This document shows, in pieces, positions 13,193-50,858 of a DNA stretch of 64,000 nucleotides. Positions within the stretch are counted from its first letter, which is position 1; each line of letters begins with the position of its first letter. Made by a program: the position numbers and the translations under genes. Location: the NCBI GenBank assembly GCA_000004985.1, contig GG738908.1. One strand, given 5' to 3'. Below the pieces are notes generated by a model that was given only the letters and a program-made list of their open reading frames with translations, was not told the DNA's origin and did not search any database. Origin of the DNA: Naegleria gruberi (taxonomy: Eukaryota).

Positions 13193-14341
13193 TTAATGGT
13201 TTGGTTTGGCAGTGTTTGTGGATTGCTCGCTACTGGCATCACTGCACGACGCTGATTCGTTATCTGATGAAGTTGAATCATCTTGTTGCTTCTTTTCATC
13301 TGTTGTAGGCACAGGTTTCTTTCTTCCTCTTGGAATTGATCCAGGTTTTCTAGGTCTACCTCTAGGTCTCTTTGGCAAACTTTGTATTCTCAATTGTTCA
13401 GTTTTAAACGATTCCAAAGTATGCATAGAAAAGTTGCATGTCAATGCTGATTCTGGAGATGGTCTATGCCTTTCATGTTTCGAGCTCTTCTTAACGCCTC
13501 CTGATAATACAGGGATTGGAATTTCCTCTCGTTTTGAACTCGATGAAGATGCCCTGGATTGATGTTTTGAAATAACTGTAGAGGATTGGTTCACATGGTG
13601 GGACGAAACCAAATCAATTGCGTTGGATGCATGTTGTTGATTCATGGAAGGGAATGCTTCTTGATGAGATGTGAGAGCATTTAAATTATTCGAAAGGTTT
13701 AAACTGGTGGAAGCGTGTGTAGCTGAGAATAGAACATTACTACCTGCACTACTTTCATGTTGTTGCTGTTGATTATGTAAAGCATTTTGTAAGAGCTGCG
13801 ATACACTTTCATGAGAAAAATCATCTTCAATAGAGGATTTGTGTCCAATCGAAATTGTTTGCTTTAGTGGGTTGACCACCACATGTGTTGACTCATTGTT
13901 GATGTTCAGCTGTACAGAGGGTTGTTGATGATGTGAAGAAGGTATTGGTAACTTTTCCAAAACCATGTATAATTGAAATAATTGCTCTGGAGAAAGCTCT
14001 TTGAGTAACTTTTCTTGAATGTACTGTAAATTGTTATGTGTTGGAATTTGTTGTTGATGTATATTTGGGGAAGCAGATAATGAAGTGGAAAAGGAAACAT
14101 TGGAATAGGTATTATGGAGATAGTTCTCGGCTAAATGACTTGTAGGTTGTGAAAATTGGTGACTTGGTATAGTAACAGTGTTTTGTTGACTAATAGAAAG
14201 GTGTTGTTGCTGTAAGTTTAAATTAGGTGTTGTTGACTGTGTATTGTTGGCATTGAAGGTGTTAGTATTATTATTACTTGAAATTGGAAAGAGAGAATTA
14301 TTATGCTGAAGTTGATTATTGATGTTATCTCTGGGAATCAT
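13193..14341 (-). CDS. Low-complexity Asn/Gln/Ser-rich nuclear-type protein with C-terminal AT-hook-like basic motif (KRPRGRPRKPGSIPRGRKKP)
   Basis: A 382-aa ORF. The N-terminus MIPRDNINNQLQHNNSLFPISSNNNTNTFNANNTQS is shared with a paralog at 16659..17047. Confidence 0.6.
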   Translation of the reverse strand: MIPRDNINNQLQHNNSLFPISSNNNTNTFNANNTQSTTPNLNLQQQHLSISQQNTVTIPSHQFSQPTSHLAENYLHNTYSNVSFSTSLSASPNIHQQQIPTHNNLQYIQEKLLKELSPEQLFQLYMVLEKLPIPSSHHQQPSVQLNINNESTHVVVNPLKQTISIGHKSSIEDDFSHESVSQLLQNALHNQQQQHESSAGSNVLFSATHASTSLNLSNNLNALTSHQEAFPSMNQQHASNAIDLVSSHHVNQSSTVISKHQSRASSSSSKREEIPIPVLSGGVKKSSKHERHRPSPESALTCNFSMHTLESFKTEQLRIQSLPKRPRGRPRKPGSIPRGRKKPVPTTDEKKQQDDSTSSDNESASCSDASSEQSTNTAKPNH

Positions 14342-15543: not shown

Positions 15544-16658
15544 NNNNNNNNNNNNNNNNNNNNNNNNNNNNNNNNNNNNNNNNNNNNNNNNNNNNNNNNN
15601 NNNNNNNNNNNNNNNNNNNNNNNNNNNNNNNNNNNNNNNNNNNNNNNNNNNNNNNNNNNNNNNNNNNNNNNNNNNNNNNNNNNNNNNNNNNNNNNNNNNN
15701 NNNNNNNNNNNNNNNNNNNNNNNNNNNNNNNNNNNNNNNNNNNNNNNNNNNNNNNNNNNNNNNNNNNNNNNNNNNNNNNNNNNNNNNNNNNNNNNNNNNN
15801 NNNNNNNNNNNNNNNNNNNNNNNNNNNNNNNNNNNNNNNNNNNNNNNNNNNNNNNNNNNNNNNNNNNNNNNNNNNNNNNNNNNNNNNNNNNNNNNNNNNN
15901 NNNNNNNNNNNNNNNNNNNNNNNNNNNNNNNNNNNNNNNNNNNNNNNNNNNNNNNNNNNNNNNNNNNNNNNNNNNNNNNNNNNNNNNNNNNNNNNNNNNN
16001 NNNNNNNNNNNNNNNNNNNNNNNNNNNNNNNNNNNNNNNNNNNNNNNNNNNNNNNNNNNNNNNNNNNNNNNNNNNNNNNNNNNNNNNNNNNNNNNNNNNN
16101 NNNNNNNNNNNNNNNNNNNNNNNNNNNNNNNNNNNNNNNNNNNNNNNNNNNNNNNNNNNNNNNNNNNNNNNNNNNNNNNNNNNNNNNNNNNNNNNNNNNN
16201 NNNNNNNNNNNNNNNNNNNNNNNNNNNNNNNNNNNNNNNNNNNNNNNNNNNNNNNNNNNNNNNNNNNNNNNNNNNNNNNNNNNNNNNNNNNNNNNNNNNN
16301 NNNNNNNNNNNNNNNNNNNNNNNNNNNNNNNNNNNNNNNNNNNNNNNNNNNNNNNNNNNNNNNNNNNNNNNNNNNNNNNNNNNNNNNNNNNNNNNNNNNN
16401 NNNNNNNNNNNNNNNNNNNNNNNNNNNNNNNNNNNNNNNNNNNNNNNNNNNNNNNNNNNNNNNNNNNNNNNNNNNNNNNNNNNNNNNNNNNNNNNNNNNN
16501 NNNNNNNNNNNNNNNNNNNNNNNNNNNNNNNNNNNNNNNNNNNNNNNNNNNNNNNNNNNNNNNNNNNNNNNNNNNNNNNNNNNNNNNNNNNNNNNNNNNN
16601 NNNNNNNNNNNNNNNNNNNNNNNNNNNNNNNNNNNNNNNNNNNNNNNNNNNNNNNNNN
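15544..16658. other. Assembly gap (1115 N)
   Basis: A run of n. Both flanks carry partial paralogous genes, so the true size is probably underestimated. Confidence 0.99.
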
Positions 16659-18358: not shown

Positions 18359-18408
18359 NNNNNNNNNNNNNNNNNNNNNNNNNNNNNNNNNNNNNNNNNN
18401 NNNNNNNN
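18359..18408. other. Assembly gap (50 N)
   Basis: A run of n flanked on both sides by the same ~900-bp sequence. Confidence 0.99.
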
Positions 18409-22768: not shown

Positions 22769-25700
22769 NNNNNNNNNNNNNNNNNNNNNNNNNNNNNNNN
22801 NNNNNNNNNNNNNNNNNNNNNNNNNNNNNNNNNNNNNNNNNNNNNNNNNNNNNNNNNNNNNNNNNNNNNNNNNNNNNNNNNNNNNNNNNNNNNNNNNNNN
22901 NNNNNNNNNNNNNNNNNNNNNNNNNNNNNNNNNNNNNNNNNNNNNNNNNNNNNNNNNNNNNNNNNNNNNNNNNNNNNNNNNNNNNNNNNNNNNNNNNNNN
23001 NNNNNNNNNNNNNNNNNNNNNNNNNNNNNNNNNNNNNNNNNNNNNNNNNNNNNNNNNNNNNNNNNNNNNNNNNNNNNNNNNNNNNNNNNNNNNNNNNNNN
23101 NNNNNNNNNNNNNNNNNNNNNNNNNNNNNNNNNNNNNNNNNNNNNNNNNNNNNNNNNNNNNNNNNNNNNNNNNNNNNNNNNNNNNNNNNNNNNNNNNNNN
23201 NNNNNNNNNNNNNNNNNNNNNNNNNNNNNNNNNNNNNNNNNNNNNNNNNNNNNNNNNNNNNNNNNNNNNNNNNNNNNNNNNNNNNNNNNNNNNNNNNNNN
23301 NNNNNNNNNNNNNNNNNNNNNNNNNNNNNNNNNNNNNNNNNNNNNNNNNNNNNNNNNNNNNNNNNNNNNNNNNNNNNNNNNNNNNNNNNNNNNNNNNNNN
23401 NNNNNNNNNNNNNNNNNNNNNNNNNNNNNNNNNNNNNNNNNNNNNNNNNNNNNNNNNNNNNNNNNNNNNNNNNNNNNNNNNNNNNNNNNNNNNNNNNNNN
23501 NNNNNNNNNNNNNNNNNNNNNNNNNNNNNNNNNNNNNNNNNNNNNNNNNNNNNNNNNNNNNNNNNNNNNNNNNNNNNNNNNNNNNNNNNNNNNNNNNNNN
23601 NNNNNNNNNNNNNNNNNNNNNNNNNNNNNNNNNNNNNNNNNNNNNNNNNNNNNNNNNNNNNNNNNNNNNNNNNNNNNNNNNNNNNNNNNNNNNNNNNNNN
23701 NNNNNNNNNNNNNNNNNNNNNNNNNNNNNNNNNNNNNNNNNNNNNNNNNNNNNNNNNNNNNNNNNNNNNNNNNNNNNNNNNNNNNNNNNNNNNNNNNNNN
23801 NNNNNNNNNNNNNNNNNNNNNNNNNNNNNNNNNNNNNNNNNNNNNNNNNNNNNNNNNNNNNNNNNNNNNNNNNNNNNNNNNNNNNNNNNNNNNNNNNNNN
23901 NNNNNNNNNNNNNNNNNNNNNNNNNNNNNNNNNNNNNNNNNNNNNNNNNNNNNNNNNNNNNNNNNNNNNNNNNNNNNNNNNNNNNNNNNNNNNNNNNNNN
24001 NNNNNNNNNNNNNNNNNNNNNNNNNNNNNNNNNNNNNNNNNNNNNNNNNNNNNNNNNNNNNNNNNNNNNNNNNNNNNNNNNNNNNNNNNNNNNNNNNNNN
24101 NNNNNNNNNNNNNNNNNNNNNNNNNNNNNNNNNNNNNNNNNNNNNNNNNNNNNNNNNNNNNNNNNNNNNNNNNNNNNNNNNNNNNNNNNNNNNNNNNNNN
24201 NNNNNNNNNNNNNNNNNNNNNNNNNNNNNNNNNNNNNNNNNNNNNNNNNNNNNNNNNNNNNNNNNNNNNNNNNNNNNNNNNNNNNNNNNNNNNNNNNNNN
24301 NNNNNNNNNNNNNNNNNNNNNNNNNNNNNNNNNNNNNNNNNNNNNNNNNNNNNNNNNNNNNNNNNNNNNNNNNNNNNNNNNNNNNNNNNNNNNNNNNNNN
24401 NNNNNNNNNNNNNNNNNNNNNNNNNNNNNNNNNNNNNNNNNNNNNNNNNNNNNNNNNNNNNNNNNNNNNNNNNNNNNNNNNNNNNNNNNNNNNNNNNNNN
24501 NNNNNNNNNNNNNNNNNNNNNNNNNNNNNNNNNNNNNNNNNNNNNNNNNNNNNNNNNNNNNNNNNNNNNNNNNNNNNNNNNNNNNNNNNNNNNNNNNNNN
24601 NNNNNNNNNNNNNNNNNNNNNNNNNNNNNNNNNNNNNNNNNNNNNNNNNNNNNNNNNNNNNNNNNNNNNNNNNNNNNNNNNNNNNNNNNNNNNNNNNNNN
24701 NNNNNNNNNNNNNNNNNNNNNNNNNNNNNNNNNNNNNNNNNNNNNNNNNNNNNNNNNNNNNNNNNNNNNNNNNNNNNNNNNNNNNNNNNNNNNNNNNNNN
24801 NNNNNNNNNNNNNNNNNNNNNNNNNNNNNNNNNNNNNNNNNNNNNNNNNNNNNNNNNNNNNNNNNNNNNNNNNNNNNNNNNNNNNNNNNNNNNNNNNNNN
24901 NNNNNNNNNNNNNNNNNNNNNNNNNNNNNNNNNNNNNNNNNNNNNNNNNNNNNNNNNNNNNNNNNNNNNNNNNNNNNNNNNNNNNNNNNNNNNNNNNNNN
25001 NNNNNNNNNNNNNNNNNNNNNNNNNNNNNNNNNNNNNNNNNNNNNNNNNNNNNNNNNNNNNNNNNNNNNNNNNNNNNNNNNNNNNNNNNNNNNNNNNNNN
25101 NNNNNNNNNNNNNNNNNNNNNNNNNNNNNNNNNNNNNNNNNNNNNNNNNNNNNNNNNNNNNNNNNNNNNNNNNNNNNNNNNNNNNNNNNNNNNNNNNNNN
25201 NNNNNNNNNNNNNNNNNNNNNNNNNNNNNNNNNNNNNNNNNNNNNNNNNNNNNNNNNNNNNNNNNNNNNNNNNNNNNNNNNNNNNNNNNNNNNNNNNNNN
25301 NNNNNNNNNNNNNNNNNNNNNNNNNNNNNNNNNNNNNNNNNNNNNNNNNNNNNNNNNNNNNNNNNNNNNNNNNNNNNNNNNNNNNNNNNNNNNNNNNNNN
25401 NNNNNNNNNNNNNNNNNNNNNNNNNNNNNNNNNNNNNNNNNNNNNNNNNNNNNNNNNNNNNNNNNNNNNNNNNNNNNNNNNNNNNNNNNNNNNNNNNNNN
25501 NNNNNNNNNNNNNNNNNNNNNNNNNNNNNNNNNNNNNNNNNNNNNNNNNNNNNNNNNNNNNNNNNNNNNNNNNNNNNNNNNNNNNNNNNNNNNNNNNNNN
25601 NNNNNNNNNNNNNNNNNNNNNNNNNNNNNNNNNNNNNNNNNNNNNNNNNNNNNNNNNNNNNNNNNNNNNNNNNNNNNNNNNNNNNNNNNNNNNNNNNNNN

Positions 25701-25800
25701 NNNNNNNNNNNNNNNNNNNNNNNNNNNNNNNNNNNNNNNNNNNNNNNNNNNNNNNNNNNNNNNNNNNNNNNNNNNNNNNNNNNNNNNNNNNNNNNNNNNN
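22769..25800. other. Assembly gap (3032 N)
   Basis: A run of n. Confidence 0.99.
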
Positions 25801-27757: not shown

Positions 27758-28651
27758 TTACAAAGATTGGTGTCTTACTTCTTGAATGAAACTGCACTTG
27801 TCATAGGAACAGATTTCAAAGCATTTCATTTTCATTCTTCTATTATCGTACAGGATACTGACACAGGGTAAAATTGACTGGTTTTCATGTAATTTTTCAG
27901 CAATATTCGGAGCTACCACGTTCAAATAAATCTTTTCGAAAGTAATATCTGTGACATACTCCAAAGTTAAATTGTCAGTATCAATCAACAACCCAAGTAC
28001 CAATTGTTTGTACATTTTAATACCATACCCTGATTTCACACTCTTTCCTCCATAATAAATTGCTCCATCACTAAAGTAATAACCCACTGAATTCTTATCA
28101 GATCCAATATAACCTTCATTAGATTGATTTTCCAATACAATTCCAAAAAGAACGTTATCAGTCGAATCAATTTTATCCATAAACACACATTCGAAATAGT
28201 AACATCCAGTATTGATCTTGAGTGGTCTATTGATCGAGGCAATAGAGCTACCGACTGACTTTTTAAAAACAATCACATTATTTTTCAATAGTGATCGATC
28301 TTGAACAACTCTATAACTTTCCTTTCCTGCAATAACATTACAATTTCTGTAAAAGTTAATTTCCCACTTCAATTGATCAAACCAGAAATTATTCGATCCA
28401 TCTTCCTTCAATCCCTTGTTATTCCTCCACATAAACATCTTTTCATACATGAATTTGTAAAAGAAATTACCCTGTTCCGACATTCTCAACACGTGATAAA
28501 ACCTTTTGCAAACCATCGGCAAGTTAATCATAAAGAATAACCACTCTTCATTATTAGGAGGCTTGATCCATCGAAAAATCTCAACCCACAACTCATCAGG
28601 AATTTCCAAAATATGAGGATAAGTATTATTTGTTATTATTATTGATTGCAT
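27758..28651 (-). CDS. F-box-like / SPRY (B30.2) domain protein (297 aa)
   Basis: The N-terminus has IPDELWVEIFRWI (F-box-like). The C-terminus has a SPRY pattern (GCYYFECVF...LFGIVLENQSNEGYIGSDKNSVGYYFSDGAIYYGGKSVKSGYGIK...LVLGLLIDTDN). Confidence 0.7.
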   Translation of the reverse strand: MQSIIITNNTYPHILEIPDELWVEIFRWIKPPNNEEWLFFMINLPMVCKRFYHVLRMSEQGNFFYKFMYEKMFMWRNNKGLKEDGSNNFWFDQLKWEINFYRNCNVIAGKESYRVVQDRSLLKNNVIVFKKSVGSSIASINRPLKINTGCYYFECVFMDKIDSTDNVLFGIVLENQSNEGYIGSDKNSVGYYFSDGAIYYGGKSVKSGYGIKMYKQLVLGLLIDTDNLTLEYVTDITFEKIYLNVVAPNIAEKLHENQSILPCVSILYDNRRMKMKCFEICSYDKCSFIQEVRHQSL

Positions 28652-33781: not shown

Positions 33782-36700
33782 ATGTATATTGACAACTGGA
33801 ATGAAATGAATGGACAAACATTCTATGAAGATGATGTTTTATTTGTTGGTTTCTCTGGAACCAGTTTCGAGGGAAGAACGTTAATGAGATTCAGCAACTT
33901 GCAAGGTAAATTACCAGTTGGTGCCTATATTAGCTCTGCATCATTGGATTTGACCTATGTAGCCTGGGTGAAAGGATGTAAGATTAGAGTCAATTATTTG
34001 AATAATACTTGGGTTGTGGCCAAGAAAACAGGTTGGAGATTTAGAAATTACGACCAGAAACTGGAATGGATTAGTGCAGGAGGAGATGTATTATCTAATT
34101 CTTATTCTGTTATGGAAAGTGGAATGAGTGATGATGGAAATCAAATCAAATCCATAGCTCTGGATCCTTATATTGTACAATCGTGGTTTGATGATAATTC
34201 AAAGAATAATGGCGTCATGATTAGCGAGGTTATAGGAACCACCATCAAACCAACAATCTTCGGAGGAAACTCTACTATTAGCTTCAGACCAAGATTAACA
34301 ATAACCTACCAATTACAACCAACCAAGCCTCCACAATACCCAATGGTTTTAGGCTTATTACCACTGAGAATATTTGTACAATCCAAGACTGTTAATTGCT
34401 CACAAATTGATTGTGGCGATGATGATACTGGATCTGGAGCTATCAATGCTCCTTTCAGATCCCTCGCGAAGGCCATCACATTTGCACAACCAAATGATAT
34501 TATTTTGTTGAGAGAGGGTGTTCATGCAGGTAATGTTCAAATTACAAGAAGAAATATTACCATTCAGTCCTACTCAAATGAGAAGGCAATCATTGCTAGC
34601 CCTGTGAATGACCCATCCATTGCAATAGCTCTCTATTTTAGAAGAGATTCTTCGTATTCTACTCTGAGAAATGTAGAACTTGTGGGAGGTTTTGATTATG
34701 CAATCAGATTAGAGTCCAGTATTGATTGGGGTGGAAATAACCTGAAATATGGAGCATCTAATATTGTTATTGAAAATTGTAAGATACACGGTAGTGGCTA
34801 TCACCTAATTAAGATTGACTCTCTTTGTGAGAATGTAAATATTAGAAATAATGAACTTTTTGATGCTGGTAAAAGAGTTAGAACTGGTGGAAGTGCTATT
34901 GTTTGCTATGATACTTTCATGACCAGAATCCAGGATAATTACATTCACCACACTATGGGCGCAGCAGTAATGATCAAGTCAGGTGCCAGAAATTCAATAA
35001 TTGAAAGAAATTATATTAACAAAATTTATGGAGCTGGTATTTTAGTTGGTTTTTATGAGACTGGAGAGTATTTTAGTGATCCAAGCCAGAATCCTCTCTA
35101 TTATCAAGCCGTTAATACCATTGTGAGAAACAATATTCTGAATGATATTTCTGGAGCTGGAATAGGACTTTATTCTGCAAAAAATACACTTATCCTATTC
35201 AACACTATTTGGAAAGCTGCAAAAGATAACCAGGCAGGTATTTTAATTAATGTTGTTCAAACATGGGTCAGTAACAGCTACTCGCCTATTGTACCTTGTA
35301 CCAATGTTACAATCATGAATAATATCATTGGTACAGCTACTGAAAGAATTATAGAGATTCGAACACTCACTAGCTATGTTGATGATTCAGTTGTTGGAGG
35401 ACTAGAGGGTAATATGAATGTATCTTTCAATATTTACTATTCCATGAAGAATGCTAATGGAGTGAATGGTCTCTTTTCTGATCAGAGAAATACTATTGGT
35501 TATGTTGGAGGATTCTCAGGATGGCAAACTAAATATCAGGATTATGGAAGTGTTGAAGGAAATCCTCTAATTGATCCAATAGCTTATTATCCCACCTCAA
35601 CTTCAAATGCTATCGGAAAAGGAATGTATATTCCCTCCACAATCTCAGATTACTTTGGAAGACCAATGAAATCCAAGTTGGTGACTATTGGTGCCTTACA
35701 GTTCCTCAATGATGGTTTCGAAGATGATCCAACCATGAAATATTCCATTACTAACATTATTTACAATCCTTCATTTAATGGAACTGTTCCACCAAAAGAT
35801 GTGCCAACTTGGGCACCTCCAACCACATACAGAACTATTTACGTATCTGCAACCAATGGTAACGACAATTCAGGAAATGGTACCATTGTCAATCCTTTTA
35901 AAACCATCAAAAAGGTTACTGATTCCTCTTTCGCAAAGGATAATGATATTGTAATTGTGAGAGGTGGTATTTATCAAGAAGGAGCCATTCGTATATCTTC
36001 AACCAATTATACTATCAAATCTTATGAGAATGAGATTGTCACGATTGTTAGTGATATTAACAATGGTAATATTTTATGGGGAATTAAAACCTTTTCCAAA
36101 TTTGTAACCATTGAAGGGTTGGAAATTGTTGGTTCATTCTACTATGGACTAATGATTGACTCTTCAGATGTTACCATAAGAAAGGTCAAGATTCATGATA
36201 CAGGTTCAGATTGTATTAAACTTTCTCCTTTCACCAAGAGAATTTCCATTCTCCAGAGCGAAATTTACCATTGTGGAAAGAGAAAAACCTATCAAGCAGG
36301 TAATCCAAATCAAGATTCAGCAAGTGGTGATGGCATTCGATGTGTTAATGTAGATGATGTATTCATTAGTAGAAATTACATTCACGATCTCACTGGAACA
36401 GCCATAAAAACTCAAGGAGGAGGTCTTAGGGCTATAATTGAGAGAAATCTCATTCTTAATATTGGAGGCTTAGGAATTACTTTAGGATTTTATGAAGAAA
36501 CTTCCTATATGGATCCAACACAGAATGTATACTACTATGAAGCTATTGAAGGATTAGTGAGGAATAATATTATAGTCAATGTGCAAGGATGTGGTGTAGG
36601 TCTCTATGCATCGAAAAATTCTAGAGTTTTACACAATACCATTGTGAGTTCAGCCCTTTCGATGCAAGTTCCTATTTTATTGGCTGCTAGTCCTCATACA

Positions 36701-39622
36701 ATCAATAGCGTAGAGATTGCAGGTCAGAGTAATCACAATCCAATGGTTAAGAATAATATTGTGCAAGTTTCAGAATCTGGTATAACTCAGACAATTTATG
36801 AAATCAGAGTTCAGGATGGAGATGCTTTGGATAACTCTAAACTAGATTCAAATTTCAATATTTATTACAGTAATTTCAATAATTACCATGGAAACTCTTT
36901 GGCGAATATCAATTTTATGGATAGAAGATTATCAAGCTACCTGTTTACTTCTGATTTTCATTTATGGAGAGCTCATATTCAATCTGATTACAACTCGTCT
37001 ATAACTGATCCAAAACTTGATTTCAATTTGAACATTGGAGAAGACAGTCCAGCTAGAAATACAGCACCTCTTCTTTCTGAAGTTTCTGAAGATTTCTATG
37101 GTAATTCAAGATCAGAAAACAATAATGACATTGGTGCCCTATTATTCACAACTGATTTGTCAAATTCTTCGTACTATCCTCCTGTAGTTGGAAGTTTATT
37201 ATTGAAGAGTGGTAAAAACGTATGCTCTGGAAATATGAGCTCGTTTGAAACTCCTAGAACCTACTATGTACATAATATTGAGGGTTCGGACACTGATTGT
37301 TTGGGAACTTTTGACATGCCCTTCAAAACTATTCAACAGGCACTCGCGGTAGCTTCTCCCTTCAGTAATATAACGATAAGGTACACTGGAGTGTCCTACA
37401 ATGAATCGTTATCTATCAAGACACCCTATTTGAGAATTTCAACATTTGAGAATGATCCATACGAGGCATTGATTCTTTCTTCAATTTATTCACCATCTAT
37501 TCTTCATACTTTGAGATTTGAATCAACTGCTTTCGGTTGTTCTCTTAGTAGATTACATCTTCAAGGAGGATATTTCTATACTCTTAAAGTAGATGCAGAT
37601 AATATTCAAGTAGATCGCTCAATTATTCACTATTGCGGTACTAAATGTGTGTTTGCCTTAAATGCTGATAATTTCACACTCACCAACAGCGAAGTGTATG
37701 ATTCTGGAATGAGAGATCCAAGCGAAGGTGAAGGAGTTCATGCGGTTGTTTCCCATAACTTTGAATGTAAGGACAACTATGTTCATGACATTACTGCCGA
37801 TGCTATCAAATTAGAAGGAGGGTCATCTCACGCAATAATTGCTGGTAATGCTATTTCTAATGCAGATAGAGGTATTCTAGTTGGTGGAAGAATTGATAAT
37901 TTGGATTTATTTGAAAAATCTAATACTCATCTTTATGAAACGTATAATTCTTCGGTTTATAATAATATTATTTCAAACACATTTGGAGTTGGAATTGCAA
38001 TGTATGGAGCTAAGCAATGTGAAATTTATTTCAATACCATTCTGAATACATGTATTACTAACACACAAGGAGCAGCCATTCATTTGGCTAGTACGAAACA
38101 TAGAAATTTAGTTATTACTCCAGTTGACTCCCTAGTTATTGTAAACAATATTGTTTATAATAGCGATCCAAGCAATGCAGGTGCCATGATTAGAATTGAT
38201 GAAGGTCTTGAGGGTTTTTCAGCATCCATCACTGGATCTGTCGTAATGAACAATAACCTGTATTATTCCAACAAATCATCCGTGTTTGTGGATGGAAGAA
38301 AGGCAACTAAATTTTCAGGAAACTTTAATATTTGGAAAACTCAAATCTCCAACTACTTTGGAAATGGAAACGAAGTCAACAGCTTGAACGTAGCTCCATT
38401 ATTAGATACTGATAATCTTTCTCCAAAGGGCTCTTCACCTGTGATATCTTCTGGACAAATTTCTTCAATAACTCAATCCATAACAAGCGATTTTTATGGC
38501 AATGTCAGAGATTCAATTAATTCTTCTGATATTGGTGCCATAGTGGGTGATGCTCTCATTGTTTCCAAATCAAAGCCAAGAACTATTCCACTGAATATTT
38601 CTAAGATTGCCCTCTCCAAAAGTTCAAACATTGTTAGATATCCTCCAAGCGGAAAGCAATCAACATGGTTTGTTCCTGGCTATACAACAGTTGACGATCC
38701 ATCCCTGTTTGATTTGTCCAATTGTTCTATCTATCCTTCTGATAATCCATGGAATCAAGATATTTCCAATCTACCTGTTCATCCTCGATCTGATGCCTTC
38801 ATTAATAATGTACCAAAGAAGTTTCTTCATGCAGACTTTGGAACGACATACGATGGTGCACTGAATGGTATTCCTTATGTAATTGTAACCAAAGATCAAG
38901 AAAAAGTTGGAATTACTCTGACTTCCTATGCTTCTGAATCTGATCCAGGTCCATATCCATTTCCAGAAGGAGCTCCTATTGAGGGAGGCCCTAATTCTAA
39001 TGGAGATCGACATATAATTGTATTGGAAAAGGATAGTTGTAAGCTGTACGAAACTTGGAGAACTTTCCCTATTTTGAAACAGTATCGTGAATCAGAGGGA
39101 GGAAACTTTTTCACAGCCGAATGTGGAGCTATTTTCGATTTGAAGTCAAACAATTTAAGACCACTTGGATATACTTCATCTGATGCGGCTGGTTTACCTG
39201 TTTATCCAGGACTTGTAAAGTATGACGAAATTGTTGTAAAGAAACAACTCAATCATGCTGTCAGATTCACAGTAATGACAAGTCAGAAAGCTTACATCTT
39301 ACCAGCTACTCACTTTGCCTCCTCAAATACGAATCCAAATATCATGCCAATGGGATTGAGATTGAGAATGAAGGCAACCTATGATTGTTCTCTCTTATCA
39401 GAGGAAATTCAAGTAATTTGCGCAGGATTGAAAAAGTTTGGCATGATTTTGGCAGACAATGGTGGAGATTTTTATGTTTCAGGATCTCCACATCCATTGT
39501 GGGATGATAATCACCTCAATGATATGAAGAAGATTCCATCTCTTGCCTTTGAAGTTGTCTACACTGGAAAGACATGTATTGATCCTAGTTGTAACACATG
39601 GAGAGATGAAATTATCAATTAA
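33782..39622 (+). CDS. Giant (1946 aa) protein with three tandem right-handed parallel beta-helix (pectin-lyase-fold) modules and a conserved ~330-aa C-terminal domain
   Basis: One uninterrupted ORF. Three modules each start with a NPFKTIKK / APFRSLAKA / MPFKTIQQAL ... (R)GG(I)Y motif. Each is followed by about 20 NxI/NNxI beta-helix rungs (IHHT/IHD motifs, FYE(E)T..Y.DP.QN..YY.A insertions). The C-terminal domain is GDRHIIVLEKDSCKLYETWRTFP...ICAGLKKFGMILADNGGDFYVSGSPHPLWDD. Confidence 0.8.
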   Translation: MYIDNWNEMNGQTFYEDDVLFVGFSGTSFEGRTLMRFSNLQGKLPVGAYISSASLDLTYVAWVKGCKIRVNYLNNTWVVAKKTGWRFRNYDQKLEWISAGGDVLSNSYSVMESGMSDDGNQIKSIALDPYIVQSWFDDNSKNNGVMISEVIGTTIKPTIFGGNSTISFRPRLTITYQLQPTKPPQYPMVLGLLPLRIFVQSKTVNCSQIDCGDDDTGSGAINAPFRSLAKAITFAQPNDIILLREGVHAGNVQITRRNITIQSYSNEKAIIASPVNDPSIAIALYFRRDSSYSTLRNVELVGGFDYAIRLESSIDWGGNNLKYGASNIVIENCKIHGSGYHLIKIDSLCENVNIRNNELFDAGKRVRTGGSAIVCYDTFMTRIQDNYIHHTMGAAVMIKSGARNSIIERNYINKIYGAGILVGFYETGEYFSDPSQNPLYYQAVNTIVRNNILNDISGAGIGLYSAKNTLILFNTIWKAAKDNQAGILINVVQTWVSNSYSPIVPCTNVTIMNNIIGTATERIIEIRTLTSYVDDSVVGGLEGNMNVSFNIYYSMKNANGVNGLFSDQRNTIGYVGGFSGWQTKYQDYGSVEGNPLIDPIAYYPTSTSNAIGKGMYIPSTISDYFGRPMKSKLVTIGALQFLNDGFEDDPTMKYSITNIIYNPSFNGTVPPKDVPTWAPPTTYRTIYVSATNGNDNSGNGTIVNPFKTIKKVTDSSFAKDNDIVIVRGGIYQEGAIRISSTNYTIKSYENEIVTIVSDINNGNILWGIKTFSKFVTIEGLEIVGSFYYGLMIDSSDVTIRKVKIHDTGSDCIKLSPFTKRISILQSEIYHCGKRKTYQAGNPNQDSASGDGIRCVNVDDVFISRNYIHDLTGTAIKTQGGGLRAIIERNLILNIGGLGITLGFYEETSYMDPTQNVYYYEAIEGLVRNNIIVNVQGCGVGLYASKNSRVLHNTIVSSALSMQVPILLAASPHTINSVEIAGQSNHNPMVKNNIVQVSESGITQTIYEIRVQDGDALDNSKLDSNFNIYYSNFNNYHGNSLANINFMDRRLSSYLFTSDFHLWRAHIQSDYNSSITDPKLDFNLNIGEDSPARNTAPLLSEVSEDFYGNSRSENNNDIGALLFTTDLSNSSYYPPVVGSLLLKSGKNVCSGNMSSFETPRTYYVHNIEGSDTDCLGTFDMPFKTIQQALAVASPFSNITIRYTGVSYNESLSIKTPYLRISTFENDPYEALILSSIYSPSILHTLRFESTAFGCSLSRLHLQGGYFYTLKVDADNIQVDRSIIHYCGTKCVFALNADNFTLTNSEVYDSGMRDPSEGEGVHAVVSHNFECKDNYVHDITADAIKLEGGSSHAIIAGNAISNADRGILVGGRIDNLDLFEKSNTHLYETYNSSVYNNIISNTFGVGIAMYGAKQCEIYFNTILNTCITNTQGAAIHLASTKHRNLVITPVDSLVIVNNIVYNSDPSNAGAMIRIDEGLEGFSASITGSVVMNNNLYYSNKSSVFVDGRKATKFSGNFNIWKTQISNYFGNGNEVNSLNVAPLLDTDNLSPKGSSPVISSGQISSITQSITSDFYGNVRDSINSSDIGAIVGDALIVSKSKPRTIPLNISKIALSKSSNIVRYPPSGKQSTWFVPGYTTVDDPSLFDLSNCSIYPSDNPWNQDISNLPVHPRSDAFINNVPKKFLHADFGTTYDGALNGIPYVIVTKDQEKVGITLTSYASESDPGPYPFPEGAPIEGGPNSNGDRHIIVLEKDSCKLYETWRTFPILKQYRESEGGNFFTAECGAIFDLKSNNLRPLGYTSSDAAGLPVYPGLVKYDEIVVKKQLNHAVRFTVMTSQKAYILPATHFASSNTNPNIMPMGLRLRMKATYDCSLLSEEIQVICAGLKKFGMILADNGGDFYVSGSPHPLWDDNHLNDMKKIPSLAFEVVYTGKTCIDPSCNTWRDEIIN

Positions 39623-42465: not shown

Positions 42466-45400
42466 TTATTGTCTCTTATATTTAATAATAAATTCAGGAT
42501 AACATTGACATTTATCATAGACAATGAATTCTCTATATGAATTAGTTGAAGTATTTGATTGACCAATAACACTATCATAAACTCTATTGTTACTTCCTGA
42601 AATTTCAGGTGGTCTTCTCTGATTATTCATCACTTGTTTTGTGAAATGAATTTGTCTTCCCATTACAACTCTACATAATAATAGAGTATATTCATTGGAA
42701 TGATCAGGTGTACAATATTGATCACTCTTTGAACAATATTCTGCAAAATAAATACCTGCTCCAAATAATCCATTTAAATTTGCAACTCTTTCATCAAATC
42801 CATGTTCTGCAATTGTATTCACAAATTCAGGTTTTGTTCCATGCCATAAATATTTTTCATTCATATTAGAATTTAATCCAATTGTTTTCATCCATTCAAA
42901 TGATTTTGATGTTTTTGAAATATTTTCAGTTTGAACTTGAAGTGAATTAATTGAATCTTGATATGAAATTAAATGATTCATTCTTGATTTGAATGAAGTG
43001 AAAAGTGTTGAATTTTCAATTCTTGAAACACTTGAAACAATTAATTTAGAATAATTAATTCTTGATAATTGATCTCTTCCAGATCCAAGTGTTGCAGAAT
43101 TACACGATACATTCATAATTTCTTGCATTGTATCTTTTAAATATTGTGTAACATCAACAGTGTAATATCTTTTCGAATAAGTTTGGAATGTGTTTCTTTT
43201 CCAATAACTTGGAAGTGAAATTGTTAATTGTTTGGATTTTGATTCTTTAATTTCCTTTTCCATCTTCTCAATTTCAATTTCTTTTTGTTTCAAATTTTGT
43301 AATTTCTTTGAAATTTCTTCACTTTTCTTTGACTTTGAATTTGAAAATTGTTTCTTTTCCTTTTCTAGATTTAAAATTTCAATTTTCAAATTTTCATGAT
43401 TTTTTTTCATTTTCAATTCAAATTCATTCAATTGATTCTGATAATCTTTCAATTCCTTTGATTGATTTTCCATTAATTGAACATGTTTCTGAATTTTAAC
43501 TTCATCTAATAATGTTCCTTTCAAAAAGAATTCATTTGCAAGTGCATCAGATGCAAATGGTCTCAAATTTACATCTGAATTCAAACATTCATCACATAAA
43601 TTATTCAATGATTTGAATTGTTTCAATTCTTGTTCTTTCATACAATTTTTAATTGTTTTACCAAATGCAAACATGTCAGATTTAAATGTTGCTGATGTTT
43701 TTCCATTCACTAATTCAGGTGCTAAATAATCCAATGTACCAGCAATTCCACTTGTTCTTGTGAATAAATTCATTGTTCTACTTGTTATATCTAAACTAAT
43801 ATCAAAATCACCTAAAATAATTGGATAATATTCTGTGATCATNNNNNNNNNNNNNNNNNNNNNNNNNNNNNNNNNNNNNNNNNNNNNNNNNNNNNNNNNN
43901 NNNNNNNNNNNNNNNNNNNNNNNNNNNNNNNNNNNNNNNNNNNNNNNNNNNNNNNNNNNNNNNNNNNNNNNNNNNNNNNNNNNNNNNNNNNNNNNNNNNN
44001 NNNNNNNNNNNNNNNNNNNNNNNNNNNNNNNNNNNNNNNNNNNNNNNNNNNNNNNNNNNNNNNNNNNNNNNNNNNNNNNNNNNNNNNNNNNNNNNNNNNN
44101 NNNNNNNNNNNNNNNNNNNNNNNNNNNNNNNNNNNNNNNNNNNNNNNNNNNNNNNNNNNNNNNNNNNNNNNNNNNNNNNNNNNNNNNNNNNNNNNNNNNN
44201 NNNNNNNNNNNNNNNNNNNNNNNNNNNNNNNNNNNNNNNNNNNNNNNNNNNNNNNNNNNNNNNNNNNNNNNNNNNNNNNNNNNNNNNNNNNNNNNNNNNN
44301 NNNNNNNNNNNNNNNNNNNNNNNNNNNNNNNNNNNNNNNNNNNNNNNNNNNNNNNTGTTATCACTTTCAGTGTAAATTCCTTCAATTTCAATAATATTTG
44401 AATGTTTTAACTTGTTTGTAATTNTCAATTCCTTTTCTAAACCTTCAATTGATTTCTTATCTTTTAAATTATATTGTTTAATTATATGTTTTTTATCATT
44501 TAAATCAATTCCAATAAAAACATTATGATTTCCATTCCAATTTTGAATTGGTTTAATTTCTTTAAACATTTCAGGTGTCATTTCATTAATATTTAAATTA
44601 GATAATAAATCACTTGCCATGTTTGATTTAATATCAAATCCAATTGTCGTTAATTGAAGAAATTTCATTTTAATTTCATTTAATTTTTGAATATTTTCCT
44701 TCAAATTAGATTTTAATTCAATTAAATTAAATTCTTTAATTTGAATTTCATCTTTAATATCATTCATTTCATCTTCATTATTAACATGTTTCAATTCATC
44801 TTTTAATCCTTCAATATCTAGATTTAACATATTTAAATTTCTTGTAATTCTTGTTTTTTGTCTTTGAATGGTTTTAAATTGTTCAGATAAATTTGAATAA
44901 TTATTCATAATATTTATAATATTTTGTAACATTTCATATTTTTCAATTATATATGGAATTGTTTCTTGAATTAATAATTTACAATTTAATTCTTGTTTTT
45001 GATAATAATTATATAATTCTAAAATATTCATTTGATCATTGTCTGAAATTAATACTTTACAATTTGATAATATATTATTTAAATATAATTCTTCTTGTTC
45101 TGATAATTCCATTGCTTTTTGTAAATTATTTGAAAATTGTGTCAAATCAATTTCATTACAATAATTGATAGAGTTTACAATATTTGATAATTGTTTTGTA
45201 ACTTGTTGTAATATTGTTTTAGTTTCATTTCCAAATTTATTATGAGTTGGAACTATATTAATACTGTTTATATTCTTAATAGATTGTTCACTCATTTCAA
45301 TACTGTCAAATAATTCTTGTTTAATAAATTGAGAATTAAATTCATTAAATAATTCTAATTTTTCACTTAATACTTCTAAATAAGATTGTAATTTAAATAA

Positions 45401-46954
45401 ATATTTTTGATTATTAATAAATTCCAATATAGTTCTAATATTATTCATTAAATTATTAATAGTTAATAAATGTTCATTATTTTCAATATTATAATTATTA
45501 CTTGTTAATCTTTCAATTAAATTACAACAATTATTTAAATTATTACAAATTGTTAAATATTCATCTTGAAATTCTTTCTTAATTTGAATAGAAGAAGAAA
45601 ATGATTGAATCGATTCAAATTGTTTTTCAACTTTTCTTCTATTATTATCAACTTGTTGGTTGAGTGAACATAATTTTGAAAATGTTTCAGATGTGATTAT
45701 GAATGATTGTTTTTTCTCTAATTCTTTTCTTTCTCTTTCTATTTTTAGTAAACATTCTTTTTCAATTCTTTCCTTTTCAATTCTTTCCATTTCTAATTTT
45801 TTAATTCTTTCTCTTTCTAATCTTTCCATTTCTAGTTGGTTAAATTTTAATTGTTCCGATTGTTCTTTTAATAGTTGTTGTTCTTTTTCCATGTCACTTT
45901 TAATTGTTTGAATATTAATTCCATTCACTGACCATGTGTAATTTATGTTAATATTTGGATGTTGAAGTAATTGTTTAACAATTTCTAAATGCCCATTTTG
46001 GCAAGCAGTGTATAATGGTGGCTAATATATAAAAATAAAAATTAAATTAAATATTAAATACTTACAAACTAATATTATAAATATAAAAATTAAATTAAAT
46101 ATTAAAATACTTACTTTCTAATATTATAAATAAAATTAAATTAAATATTAAAATACTTACACGCTAATATTATAAATATAAATATAAATTAAATATTAAA
46201 ATACTTACACCCAAATTAACATCAATTGTTTTACATGATAATAATAATTTAACAATTTCTAAATAACCATTTTGGCAAGCAGTGTATAATGGTGTCTAAT
46301 ATTATAAATATAAAATTAAATTAAATATTAAAATACTTACATCCTAATATTATAAATAATATTAAATTAAATATTAAAATACTTACAAACTAATATTATA
46401 AATATAAAATTAAATTAAATATTAAAATACTTACATCCTAATATTATAAATATAAACTAAAATTAAATATTAAAATACTTACAACCTAATATTATAAATA
46501 ATATTAAATTAAATATTAAATTACTTACATCCTAATATTATAAATAATATTAAATTAAATATTAAAATACTTACAAACTAATATTATAAATATAAAATTA
46601 AATTAAATATTAAAATACTTACAACCTAATATTATAAATAATATTAAATTAAATATTAAAATACTTACATCCTAATATTATAAATAATATTAAATTAAAT
46701 ATTAAAATACTTACAAACTAATATTATAAATATAAATTAAATATTAAAATACTTACACCCAAATTAACATCAATTGTTTTACATGATAATAATAATTTAA
46801 CAATTTCTAAATGTCCTTTTTGGCAAGCAATAATTAACATGGTACAACCTTCTGATTTATTATTAACATCTTGTTCATTAAAATAATTATTAAATTCATC
46901 AATTTTGCCGTCTCTCGCAGCATCAAGCGCCTTCTGAAAATCTCGTGTGGCCAT
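42466..46954 (-). CDS. Multi-domain protein with 3 ankyrin repeats, a long E/K-rich coiled coil, a protein kinase domain (interrupted by a gap), a second coiled coil and a PARP catalytic domain; at least 3 exons
   Basis: Exon 1 is 46954..46757 (MATRDFQKALDAARDG...GCTMLIIACQKGHLEIVKLLLSCKTIDVNLG). Exon 2 is 46295..46209 (TPLYTACQNGYLEIVKLLLSCKTIDVNLG, exactly one ANK repeat). Exon 3 runs from 46021 (PPLYTACQNGHLEIVKQLLQHPN...) through the N gap 43843..44355 to the stop at 42466. The kinase N-lobe is ...VFIGIDLNDKKHIIKQYNLK...HSNIIEIEGIYTESDN, then the gap, then the C-lobe ...IILGDFDIS...GTLDYLAPE. The PARP has YLWHGT (H), GIYFAEY (Y) and YREFIVYD (E). The frame across the gap cannot be checked. 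Confidence 0.65.
43843..44355. other. Assembly gap (513 N) inside the kinase domain; also a single n at 44424
   Basis: A run of n. Confidence 0.99.
46022..46208 (-). repeat. Intron 2 of the ANK-kinase-PARP gene, built from ~4 tandem copies of a ~47-bp mini-intron-like unit
   Basis: On the minus strand each unit reads (N2-3)GTAAGTATTTTAATATTTAATTTAAT(T)ATATTTATAATATTAG. Confidence 0.7.
46296..46756 (-). repeat. Intron 1 of the same gene, built from ~10 tandem copies of the same 47-bp GTAAGT...TATTAG unit
   Basis: The ~47-nt period and unit variants cctaatattataaataatattaaattaaatattaaaatacttaca(t/aa/ac) are visible directly. Confidence 0.7.
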
Positions 46955-49838: not shown

Positions 49839-50858
49839 TTAGAAAATTCTGAATTGTAAATTGGTGCTATTAGTCTTTTTGTTGTTGTTATTATTATTAT
49901 TGTTATTGTTATTGTTGTTTGGCAATGGTACGAATTTCATAACAATAGCAAAGATGCAACCACCCAAGATGGCCAAAGCAACTAACAAACACAAAACAGC
50001 ACAACACTTATCAGTTTGAATTCTCCTCATGAAACTGGTAATTTCCTTTTGAGCTCTTTTCACATTGCTTCCGAGAGCATCCATTTCTTCATCAATTCTC
50101 CTCAATTGGTCTCTTTGTTGTCTCAGTAAATCAGCAGAATCAGTTGCCAAAGCAATAGTTTCCTCTGATTTCTTATTCAAACGATCGATAATGTCCAAAC
50201 ATTCCTTCTGAGTTGAAAATACTTCAGAAAATAATTCCTTTTCAATTTCATCGTGCCTTTGACGTTGTTCCTGTGTCAGATTGGCATTTCCCTTGTACAT
50301 ATTTGTCACATCAGCATCACTGTTTCTCTTAACTTCCACAACATCATCTTCTTCAATGGCATTGGATGAATTCTTTCCTTCATTCAATTTGTTTGCAAAT
50401 GTAAAGAAACCTTCCTTTTTACGAACACCACCACTATTTGTTGCTGATGATGATGAATTTGATGTTAAATTGGAATTTGTTGATTCTAAAGCAGAGTTAT
50501 TTGATGATTTACCATCATTCAACCCCTTTGCTTTAGTTTCAATAAATGTTTTTGATTGTTTGTAACTTGCTCTCAACTTGGCAATAATTTCCTTGTGTTT
50601 CTTCTTGGTATCGGATACTTGATTTTCAACGGATGGATCATTCTTTGTCAAGTTATTAATCTTGTTATATAATTTCCTACATTTTTCCAATAATTCTTCA
50701 ATAGTTTCGGATAGTGTGGAAATTTGTGAGGAAATAAAATTTGGATCCGATTGATTGGTAATGTTTAGACGACGAAGAGTGGTGATGTTTTCTTCAATCT
50801 TTGACTCGACACTTTCCAACTCGTGTGTGTAGGTTGAAAGTTTTTCGAGACTGCTCAT
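49839..50858 (-). CDS. Syntaxin-like Q-SNARE (t-SNARE coiled-coil homology domain plus C-terminal TM), with a poly-Asn tail after the TM
   Basis: A 339-aa ORF. The SNARE motif is LRQQRDQLRRIDEEMDALGSNVKRAQKEITSFMRRI. The TM is CCAVLCLLVALAILGGCIFAIVM. A 14xN tract follows, encoded by an (AAT/AAC)n repeat at 49878..49925. Confidence 0.7.
   Translation of the reverse strand: MSSLEKLSTYTHELESVESKIEENITTLRRLNITNQSDPNFISSQISTLSETIEELLEKCRKLYNKINNLTKNDPSVENQVSDTKKKHKEIIAKLRASYKQSKTFIETKAKGLNDGKSSNNSALESTNSNLTSNSSSSATNSGGVRKKEGFFTFANKLNEGKNSSNAIEEDDVVEVKRNSDADVTNMYKGNANLTQEQRQRHDEIEKELFSEVFSTQKECLDIIDRLNKKSEETIALATDSADLLRQQRDQLRRIDEEMDALGSNVKRAQKEITSFMRRIQTDKCCAVLCLLVALAILGGCIFAIVMKFVPLPNNNNNNNNNNNNNKKTNSTNLQFRIF

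Follow-up and report, generated by a model that had tools for sequence, protein, structure and literature searches.

Does one gene of Naegleria gruberi encode both a protein kinase and a poly-ADP-ribose polymerase (PARP) catalytic domain in a single polypeptide? The question is raised by a locus on the minus strand of contig GG738908.1 (assembly GCA_000004985.1), extending from position 46954 to 42466 of the 64,000-nucleotide stretch analysed here (the window) and containing an assembly gap of 513 N. The reading that best accounts for the data, and one that we consider probable as a whole, is that this locus (the Ank-kinase-PARP gene) is a single gene for a predicted product of about 1,185-1,200 aa comprising ankyrin repeats, helices, a kinase, a coiled coil and a tankyrase-like H-Y-E PARP domain. 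By the same reading it belongs to a widespread, uncharacterised eukaryotic kinase-PARP family, the constant core of which is a helical region, a kinase, an optional coiled coil and a PARP domain at the extreme C-terminus. All features that an initial annotation had placed on the minus strand between 46954 and 42466 were found where it had put them. They are listed below, with residues of the N-terminal part (exons 1-3 up to the gap) numbered 1-650 and those of the C-terminal (post-gap) part numbered separately.

46954-46952, minus: start codon ATG
46757..46954, minus: exon 1 (198 nt), N-terminal cap and ankyrin repeat 1, residues 1-66, donor GGT/GTAAGT
46296..46756, minus: intron 1, ending in TTAG
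46209..46295, minus: exon 2 (87 nt), ankyrin repeat 2 (Pfam Ank)
46022..46208, minus: intron 2, ending in TTAG
From 46021 to the gap, minus: exon 3, 555 codons open
45941..46021, minus: ankyrin repeat 3 at the start of exon 3, residues 96-122 (Pfam Ank_3 at 97-122)
45707..45898, minus: charged E/R/K-rich helix predicted from sequence and AlphaFold, residues 137-200
44627..45706, minus: long all-alpha region predicted from heptad score, AlphaFold and N. fowleri alignment, residues 201-560
44356..44518, minus: kinase N-lobe, residues 597-650, Pkinase profile positions 16-72
43843..44355: assembly gap of 513 N inside the kinase domain
Downstream of the gap, minus: open reading frame (ORF) of 458 codons holding the kinase C-lobe, second coiled coil and PARP domain without interruption
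43522..43842, minus: kinase C-lobe
43809-43801, minus: DFD motif (GDFDIS)
43722-43714, minus: APE motif (LAPE)
43231..43515, minus: second coiled coil or helical linker, residues 110-204 of the C-terminal part
42469..43218, minus: PARP domain including its N-terminal LPSYW extension
42843-42841, minus: PARP triad H, H334 (YLWHG)
42750-42748, minus: PARP triad Y, Y365 (GAGIYFAE)
Around 42729-42715, minus: SKS...Y nicotinamide-site motif
42531-42529, minus: PARP triad E, E438 (YREFIVY)
42466..42468, minus: stop codon TAA

The start of the gene is marked by an in-frame stop upstream of the ATG and by a paralog, P0005 (NAEGRDRAFT_70343), that begins at the same site (MADFQKAF); this and two further N. 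gruberi paralogs, P0002 and P0003, were compared as annotated protein models. Exons 1 and 2 together (198 + 87 nt) keep phase 0, and the last ~55 nt of exon 2 are an exact duplicate of the 3' end of exon 1. Since the DNA of these ORFs is very low in GC (19.5-26%) and the two remaining frames of exon 3 and of the post-gap ORF are crowded with stop codons, both long ORFs appear to be maintained beyond chance rather than accidental. The composition is itself deviant, with a coding GC of 19.5-30% and a GC content at third codon positions (GC3) of 10-14%, as against 32-38% and 27-36% in the neighbouring genes; the related N. fowleri gene has an ordinary composition (GC 33-37%). N, K and I are abundant in the encoded protein.

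The gap lies within the kinase domain, and both lobes of this domain are recognisable on its flanks, as the initial annotation had proposed. With the Pkinase model the N-lobe alone reaches 19.2 bits and the C-lobe alone 24.2 bits, and the two joined by a run of X, using window residues only, reach 48.1 bits against a cut-off of 31.7. The N-lobe, in which a single N at 44424 gives rise to one X, holds the beta-3 Lys (HIIKQY) and the alpha-C Glu (LEKELxI), and the C-lobe adds the Asp at the DFG position, the APE motif and the subdomain XI Arg in NLRPFA; the Lys, Glu, Asp and APE are marks of eukaryotic protein kinases and agree with the family consensus described below. The catalytic loop (HxDxKxxN) had been suggested to lie hidden in the 513 N, and comparison with relatives points the same way: the loop reads HCDIKPEN in both P0005 and the N. 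fowleri protein FDP41_002250 (XP_044563143, P0169). P0005, a model of 788 aa, combines ankyrin repeats and a helical region with an uninterrupted kinase (104 bits); it is 84.6% identical to the upstream and 89% to the downstream flank of the gap, and spans it with 76 residues including GVIHCDIKPEN. Judged by this paralog, the 513 N should stand for only about 74 codons (~221 nt). The kinase would be classed as Ser/Thr-type, of an HCD...DFD subtype.

It had also been assumed that the link between kinase and PARP depends on the reading frame across the gap. This is not the case, since the gap is internal to the kinase, and the kinase C-lobe, the linker with the second coiled coil and the PARP domain share the single 458-codon ORF, so that the presence of kinase and PARP in one polypeptide, likewise claimed earlier, is read directly from the sequence. 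Doubtful continuity is limited to the two lobes of one kinase domain, and is itself bridged by three observations: both flanks match the two halves of the P0005 kinase, N. fowleri FDP41_002250 is intact, and all 50 of the relatives scanned (see below) have both domains.

The PARP domain matches PF00644 with 83.8 bits (cut-off 26.7), its closest solved structures are those of tankyrase-1 and -2 (phmmer E 3e-17), and residue-for-residue alignment to tankyrase-1 recovers the complete H-Y-E triad that had been reported, with YLWHG opposite MLFHG, an identical GAGIYFAE, and YREFIVY opposite YAEYVIY. The triad is invariant in a six-sequence alignment and nearly so in larger ones. An AlphaFold model built with 40 homologs gives the PARP domain a predicted local distance difference test score (pLDDT) mostly above 90, and all 50 of the top 50 Foldseek matches are tankyrase catalytic domains (target-normalised template-modelling score about 0.77, E about 1e-14); model and search together point to the ADP-ribosyltransferase (ART) fold of the PARP/ARTD family. 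A second coiled coil had been placed before this domain, and the model indeed contains two long helices there, at residues 110-165 and 172-204 of the C-terminal part, with pLDDT mostly 85-97 over 131-200, no Pro or Gly through ~180 and a heptad score of 0.35-0.62.

At the other end of the protein the three ankyrin repeats, correctly named by the initial annotation, are spread across the three exons and are found by the Pfam models Ank (70.7 bits) and Ank_2 (76 bits). They are followed by a first helical region covering approximately residues 132-555 (about 420 aa), with long stretches lacking Pro and Gly. Described earlier as an E/K/L-rich coiled coil of ~350 aa, this region does appear to be long and helical; the composition given for it holds for only ~65 aa (residues 137-200, which are E/R/K-rich), and the rest (residues 201-560) is N/I/L/Q-rich. 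The charged segment, free of Pro and Gly, shows little hydrophobic heptad periodicity (0.11-0.24), and AlphaFold renders it as a single 67-residue helix with pLDDT about 77; it resembles a lone charged alpha-helix more closely than a classical coiled coil. Directly upstream of the kinase the heptad score rises to 0.64-0.78 (residues 449-535), beyond the 99th percentile of shuffled sequences. Nearly all of exon 3 is helical in an AlphaFold model, which is of low confidence (mean pLDDT 57, rising to 80-90 for about residues 465-545, just before the kinase) and was used for secondary structure only. That the region is more than low complexity follows from its alignment with two N. fowleri proteins, FDP41_002250 and FDP41_002169 (XP_044563812, P0045), at ~25% identity over 420-510 aa.

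These N. fowleri proteins, deposited as uncharacterised 'Poly [ADP-ribose] polymerase' entries, also share the rest of the architecture. Both have the helix-kinase-coiled coil-PARP core, Pfam detects kinase and PARP domains in both, and their C-terminal parts are 46-49% identical to that of the Ank-kinase-PARP protein; neither has ankyrin repeats, and FDP41_002250 carries an SNase domain instead. The latter (1353 aa: SNase, helices, intact kinase, coiled coil, PARP) is encoded in the reference genome by a short first exon followed by one 1346-codon ORF. A profile made from the C-terminal part and five relatives, searched against 1.84 billion representative proteins, gave 1564 matches at E<=1e-30, and about half of the best 150 cover the full profile without a break and have PARP as their last domain. 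When 50 divergent representatives (19-39% identical to P0169) were scanned by Pfam, Pkinase and a C-terminal PARP domain were each found in 50 of 50. Among these representatives are complete transcript ORFs from the choanoflagellate Hartaetosiga gracilis and from Apiculatamorpha spiralis (Prokinetoplastina), direct evidence that the kinase-PARP fusion is made as a single mRNA. The kinase signature of the family consists of grH.V in place of the Gly-loop, LK, E, HCD(I/V)KP.N, DFD rather than DFG, and APE, and its PARP signature of P.YW ... RIEN ... (L/F)(W/F)HG ... G.YFAE.SKSDQY ... REF(V/I)VY. The Ank-kinase-PARP gene has the defining combination of an HCD/DFD-type kinase (its HCD loop presumably lying in the gap) and a C-terminal H-Y-E PARP with the P.YW extension, one ORF running from the kinase C-lobe to the PARP domain. 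N-termini vary, with Ank, WD40, SNase and WWE domains recognised by Pfam (WWE in two members) and LRR-like and other repeats recognised by eye.

As far as we can tell, this family is widespread and visible in databases yet undescribed in the literature. A kinase-PARP fusion is not mentioned in Citarelli et al. 2010, Perina et al. 2014, Sowa et al. 2022, Zhang 2012 or a 2026 fungal PARP preprint, and literature phrase searches for such a fusion returned drug papers only. Citarelli et al. (PMC2964712) listed two unplaced N. gruberi PARPs, models 72525 and 80603, which keep H-Y-E, have PARP at the very C-terminus and fall outside clades 1-6, and described them as having 'no known functional domains' N-terminally, a kinase not being noted. 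These descriptions fit paralogs P0002 and P0003, although the identity of the identifiers is not confirmed; the Ank-kinase-PARP gene indicates that a complete member of this lineage has both Ank and a kinase. Perina et al. (2014) noted the combination of Ank and PARP in N. gruberi. Sowa et al. (2022) described NfTNKSL, a tankyrase-like protein of N. fowleri in which an ART domain with a zinc motif stands alone; since the PARP domain of the Ank-kinase-PARP protein has no such motif, the two are apparently distinct.

Tankyrase 1/2 (PARP5a/b, ARTD clade 4) is the best match of the catalytic domain in both sequence and fold, and the resemblance extends to overall layout, as both proteins have N-terminal ankyrins, a self-association module (putative in the N. 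gruberi protein) and a C-terminal PARP domain, and both are without the PARP1-type regulatory helical domain (no Pfam match to it in the Ank-kinase-PARP protein). The differences are nonetheless substantial. Tankyrase has five ARC clusters and the N. gruberi protein only three ankyrin repeats; in place of SAM, for which Pfam gives no match, stand helical coiled-coil segments; the zinc-binding CHCC insert of tankyrase is missing, with an alignment gap opposite tankyrase CPTHKDRSCYICHR; and, unlike in tankyrase, a whole protein kinase is inserted. The protein is tankyrase-like without being a tankyrase. Clade 3 PARPs are also detected by phmmer (E 5e-16 to PARP12 and 2e-12 to PARP15), the N. gruberi paralogs are labelled 'TCCD-inducible-PARP-like' by NCBI, and the N-terminal extension of the ART domain (LPxxW ... 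RIEN) resembles that of PARP14/15. However, the members of clade 3 (PARP7/TiPARP, PARP12, PARP10/14/15) are mono-transferases with H-Y-I/L/Y, whereas the third triad residue is Glu here, and CCCH zinc fingers, macro domains and WWE have no Pfam match in the protein, which thus lacks what marks a TiPARP/PARP7-like enzyme.

Several observations count against an intact dual enzyme, and they are best considered together with the explanations to which they lend themselves. Most directly, the catalytic loop of this copy is absent from the assembly, and at a length of 513 N the flanks of the gap lie in different frames, although gap lengths are estimates and the frame is therefore uninformative. A gap hiding a frameshift or stop would leave a pseudogene or a split gene yielding an Ank-helix-N-lobe fragment and a separate C-lobe-coiled-coil-PARP protein, and decay among relatives indicates that the N. 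gruberi copy could likewise be damaged there. In FDP41_002169, the N. fowleri gene most similar to it, an A4T5 run that immediately follows HCDIKPEN, exactly the kinase site at issue, carries a +1 frameshift: a 663-codon ORF ends in HCDIKPENFY and a stop, and a 471-codon ORF in the +1 frame then extends as far as the PARP end. Both the reference genome (L002 9960-9996) and an independent low-coverage assembly (L001 6350-6386) show this T5 run. The annotated product (1105 aa) hides this frameshift by means of a 55-nt GT..AG 'intron' over the catalytic loop, which was rejected as real since it encodes the conserved VAIQHMHSSGVIHCDIKPE in frame, and a programmed frameshift was set aside in favour of plain mutation, the required shift being +1 with no A-site stop or rare codon. 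The FDP41_002169 kinase is thus probably inactivated or the gene split. Within N. gruberi, P0005 ends inside the second coiled coil, frameshifted relative to the Ank-kinase-PARP gene; its final residues (QRKTKKFQRNYKI followed by a stop) correspond to another frame of that coiled coil (window 43290-43330), which implies a one-base indel or sequencing error that ends the model before a possible PARP domain. The P0002 model runs from the first helical region straight to the second with no kinase, and P0003 is a PARP domain alone; both are 64-74% identical to the Ank-kinase-PARP gene. P0005 and P0002 thus look truncated or domain-deleted, and the deviant GC3 of the gene also fits decay, though some of these features may be annotation artefacts. 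We nevertheless judge loss or splitting of the gene to be quite unlikely, because on either side of the gap a long ORF stays open in DNA that is very rich in AT, K, E, DFD and APE are all preserved in the two parts of the kinase, and P0005 reads intact where the gap interrupts this copy; an intact paralog exists in N. fowleri too.

Alternatively, scaffolding across the gap could have brought two paralogs together, the 5' half coming from one and the 3' half from the other, in which case no one locus of this genome would have the whole order from Ank to PARP. The assembly holds at least three close copies (the Ank-kinase-PARP locus, P0050 and P0005) in a repeat-rich, very AT-rich region. No protein identical to either half of the gene was found in a 5.8-billion-cluster collection, and the nearest database model, P0050 (391 aa, on a 37-kb scaffold), is chimeric, with the 5' part of the syntaxin/SNARE-like neighbour joined to ankyrin exon 2 and to the beginning of exon 3. 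It corresponds to window positions 49839-50858 and 45632-46295 (minus) with one small indel in the SNARE part and 140 identical aa of exon 3, a near-identity indicating that the assembly contains a second copy of the region (haplotig or recent duplication) and making some mis-scaffolding between copies possible. A mis-join is still highly improbable, given that the two flanks are similarly diverged from P0005, are correctly ordered on one strand, and break at exactly complementary points in one kinase; even then the ORF from C-lobe to PARP would be intact. Finally, the gene may be intact and one of its writers dead, leaving either a pseudokinase scaffold or a PARP domain that acts as a mono-ADP-ribosyl transferase or merely binds NAD+. 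The Gly-rich loop is degenerate, NWNGNHNV standing where GxGxxG is expected and grH.V in the family consensus; chain elongation requires H-Y-E but is not guaranteed by it, PARP3 and PARP4 keeping the triad as well; and the PARP regulatory helical domain is absent. Conversely, the kinase K, E, D, N and D and the PARP H, Y and E are kept in 80-95% of the 50 divergent members, which argues for selection on both chemistries, and the WWE domains of two members are of a type that binds poly-ADP-ribose. This explanation is unlikely on balance. As for the proposed coiled-coil oligomerisation, the evidence consists of crude heptad scoring and a low-confidence model.

If one gene does encode the whole architecture, its product might work as follows. 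The ankyrin repeats would recruit a partner or substrate, and the helical regions may oligomerise the protein, by analogy with the role of SAM in tankyrase. The kinase is predicted to be catalytically competent on the strength of the beta-3 Lys, alpha-C Glu, DFD Asp and APE present in this copy, the catalytic loop being taken from paralogs, and the PARP domain, in which H, G, Y, S-K-S, Y and E are all present, could bind NAD+ and ADP-ribosylate itself and recruited proteins, possibly with short chains. Since kinase and PARP are kept in cis and in the same order across very divergent lineages, it seems most likely that one activity gates the other, or that both mark the same recruited target. 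A broader proposal takes the helix-kinase-PARP core to be a conserved 'dual writer' of ancient origin, with phosphorylation and ADP-ribosylation coupled in cis on interchangeable sensor or recruiter modules (Ank, WD40, LRR-like, WWE, SNase) in protist stress or conflict signalling with no animal counterpart. We regard this as doubtful, but if true it would imply, for example, kinase-gated PARylation or the placing of both marks on one recruited target. Most speculatively, an effector in signalling or in stress/conflict responses would be consistent with the variable N-terminal modules and with the rapid turnover of paralogs in Naegleria.

PARPs and protein kinases rank among the main families of modification writers, and their cross-talk is usually studied between separate proteins, so that a natural and widely conserved fusion offers a simple system for the coupling of phosphorylation and ADP-ribosylation. 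A tankyrase-like catalytic domain in an organism that is not an animal is also relevant to how tankyrases arose, and the 'orphan' H-Y-E PARPs of Naegleria, earlier described as short and without other domains, now appear to be fragments or derivatives of a larger Ank/kinase architecture. The reference annotation of N. gruberi misses the Ank-kinase-PARP gene, and that of N. fowleri masks a frameshift with an artificial intron.

Two further observations concern relatives of the gene. On the same scaffold, outside the window, P0006 (NAEGRDRAFT_73830) has a PARP domain 66% identical to that of the Ank-kinase-PARP protein, fused to a ricin-B lectin and with no kinase, which indicates domain shuffling within the lineage. 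In N. fowleri, a gene for a 540-aa ADP-ribosylglycohydrolase (PF03747) lies 103 nt upstream of FDP41_002169 on the same strand (L002 5950-7898); none was found in the N. gruberi window (tblastn) or flanking the second N. fowleri paralog, and this possible writer-eraser pair, seen at one N. fowleri locus only, was not used as evidence.

The introns of the ankyrin region have an unusual structure. Intron 1 consists of 10 tandem mini-intron units and intron 2 of four, each of the form GTAAGT...TTAG and 39-46 nt long (39-45 nt in intron 1), with perfect splice-site motifs in all 14 and exactly 3 nt between units in both arrays. The spacers read TTT GAT GTT TTT GAT GTT GAT TTT GAT in intron 1 and CGT AAA TTT in intron 2, and gene model P0050, from the near-identical copy, translates eight of the former as DVFDVDFD and the latter as RKF. 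With RKF included, normal repeat spacing is restored and the Ank_2 score goes up by 21.6 bits, from 85.5 to 107.1; P0005 has additional residues in the same ankyrin loops. If real, the spacers would constitute a run of 3-nt micro-exons. Splicing of units this short would be unusual, as ordinary introns in the neighbouring G-protein alpha subunit gene are about 150-190 nt. The unit was also considered as a dispersed mobile 'introner', an idea rejected because all 13 matches within the window fall inside the Ank-kinase-PARP gene.

The remainder of the window contains further gaps and several other genes. Two of its intron-less ORFs match N. gruberi proteins letter for letter, both encoded on a scaffold of 259,034 bp, which places the window in the draft genome of strain NEG-M of this heterolobosean amoeba. 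The G-protein alpha subunit gene, directly upstream, has introns of the form GTAAGT/GTTAGT...AG, and ORFs listed across the window gaps are artefacts of N read as X.

47561 to about 48950, minus: multi-exon G-protein alpha subunit gene (Pfam G-alpha 174.8 bits, last exon)
15544-16658 (1115 N), 18359-18408 (50 N) and 22769-25800 (3032 N): further gaps
33782-39622, plus: unusually large gene in a single exon, a 1946-aa ORF in which right-handed beta-helix domains recur (PF13229, 122 bits)
13196-14341, minus: intron-less ORF identical to EFC38398 (NAEGRDRAFT_73875)
27761-28651, minus: intron-less ORF identical to EFC38400 (NAEGRDRAFT_73878)

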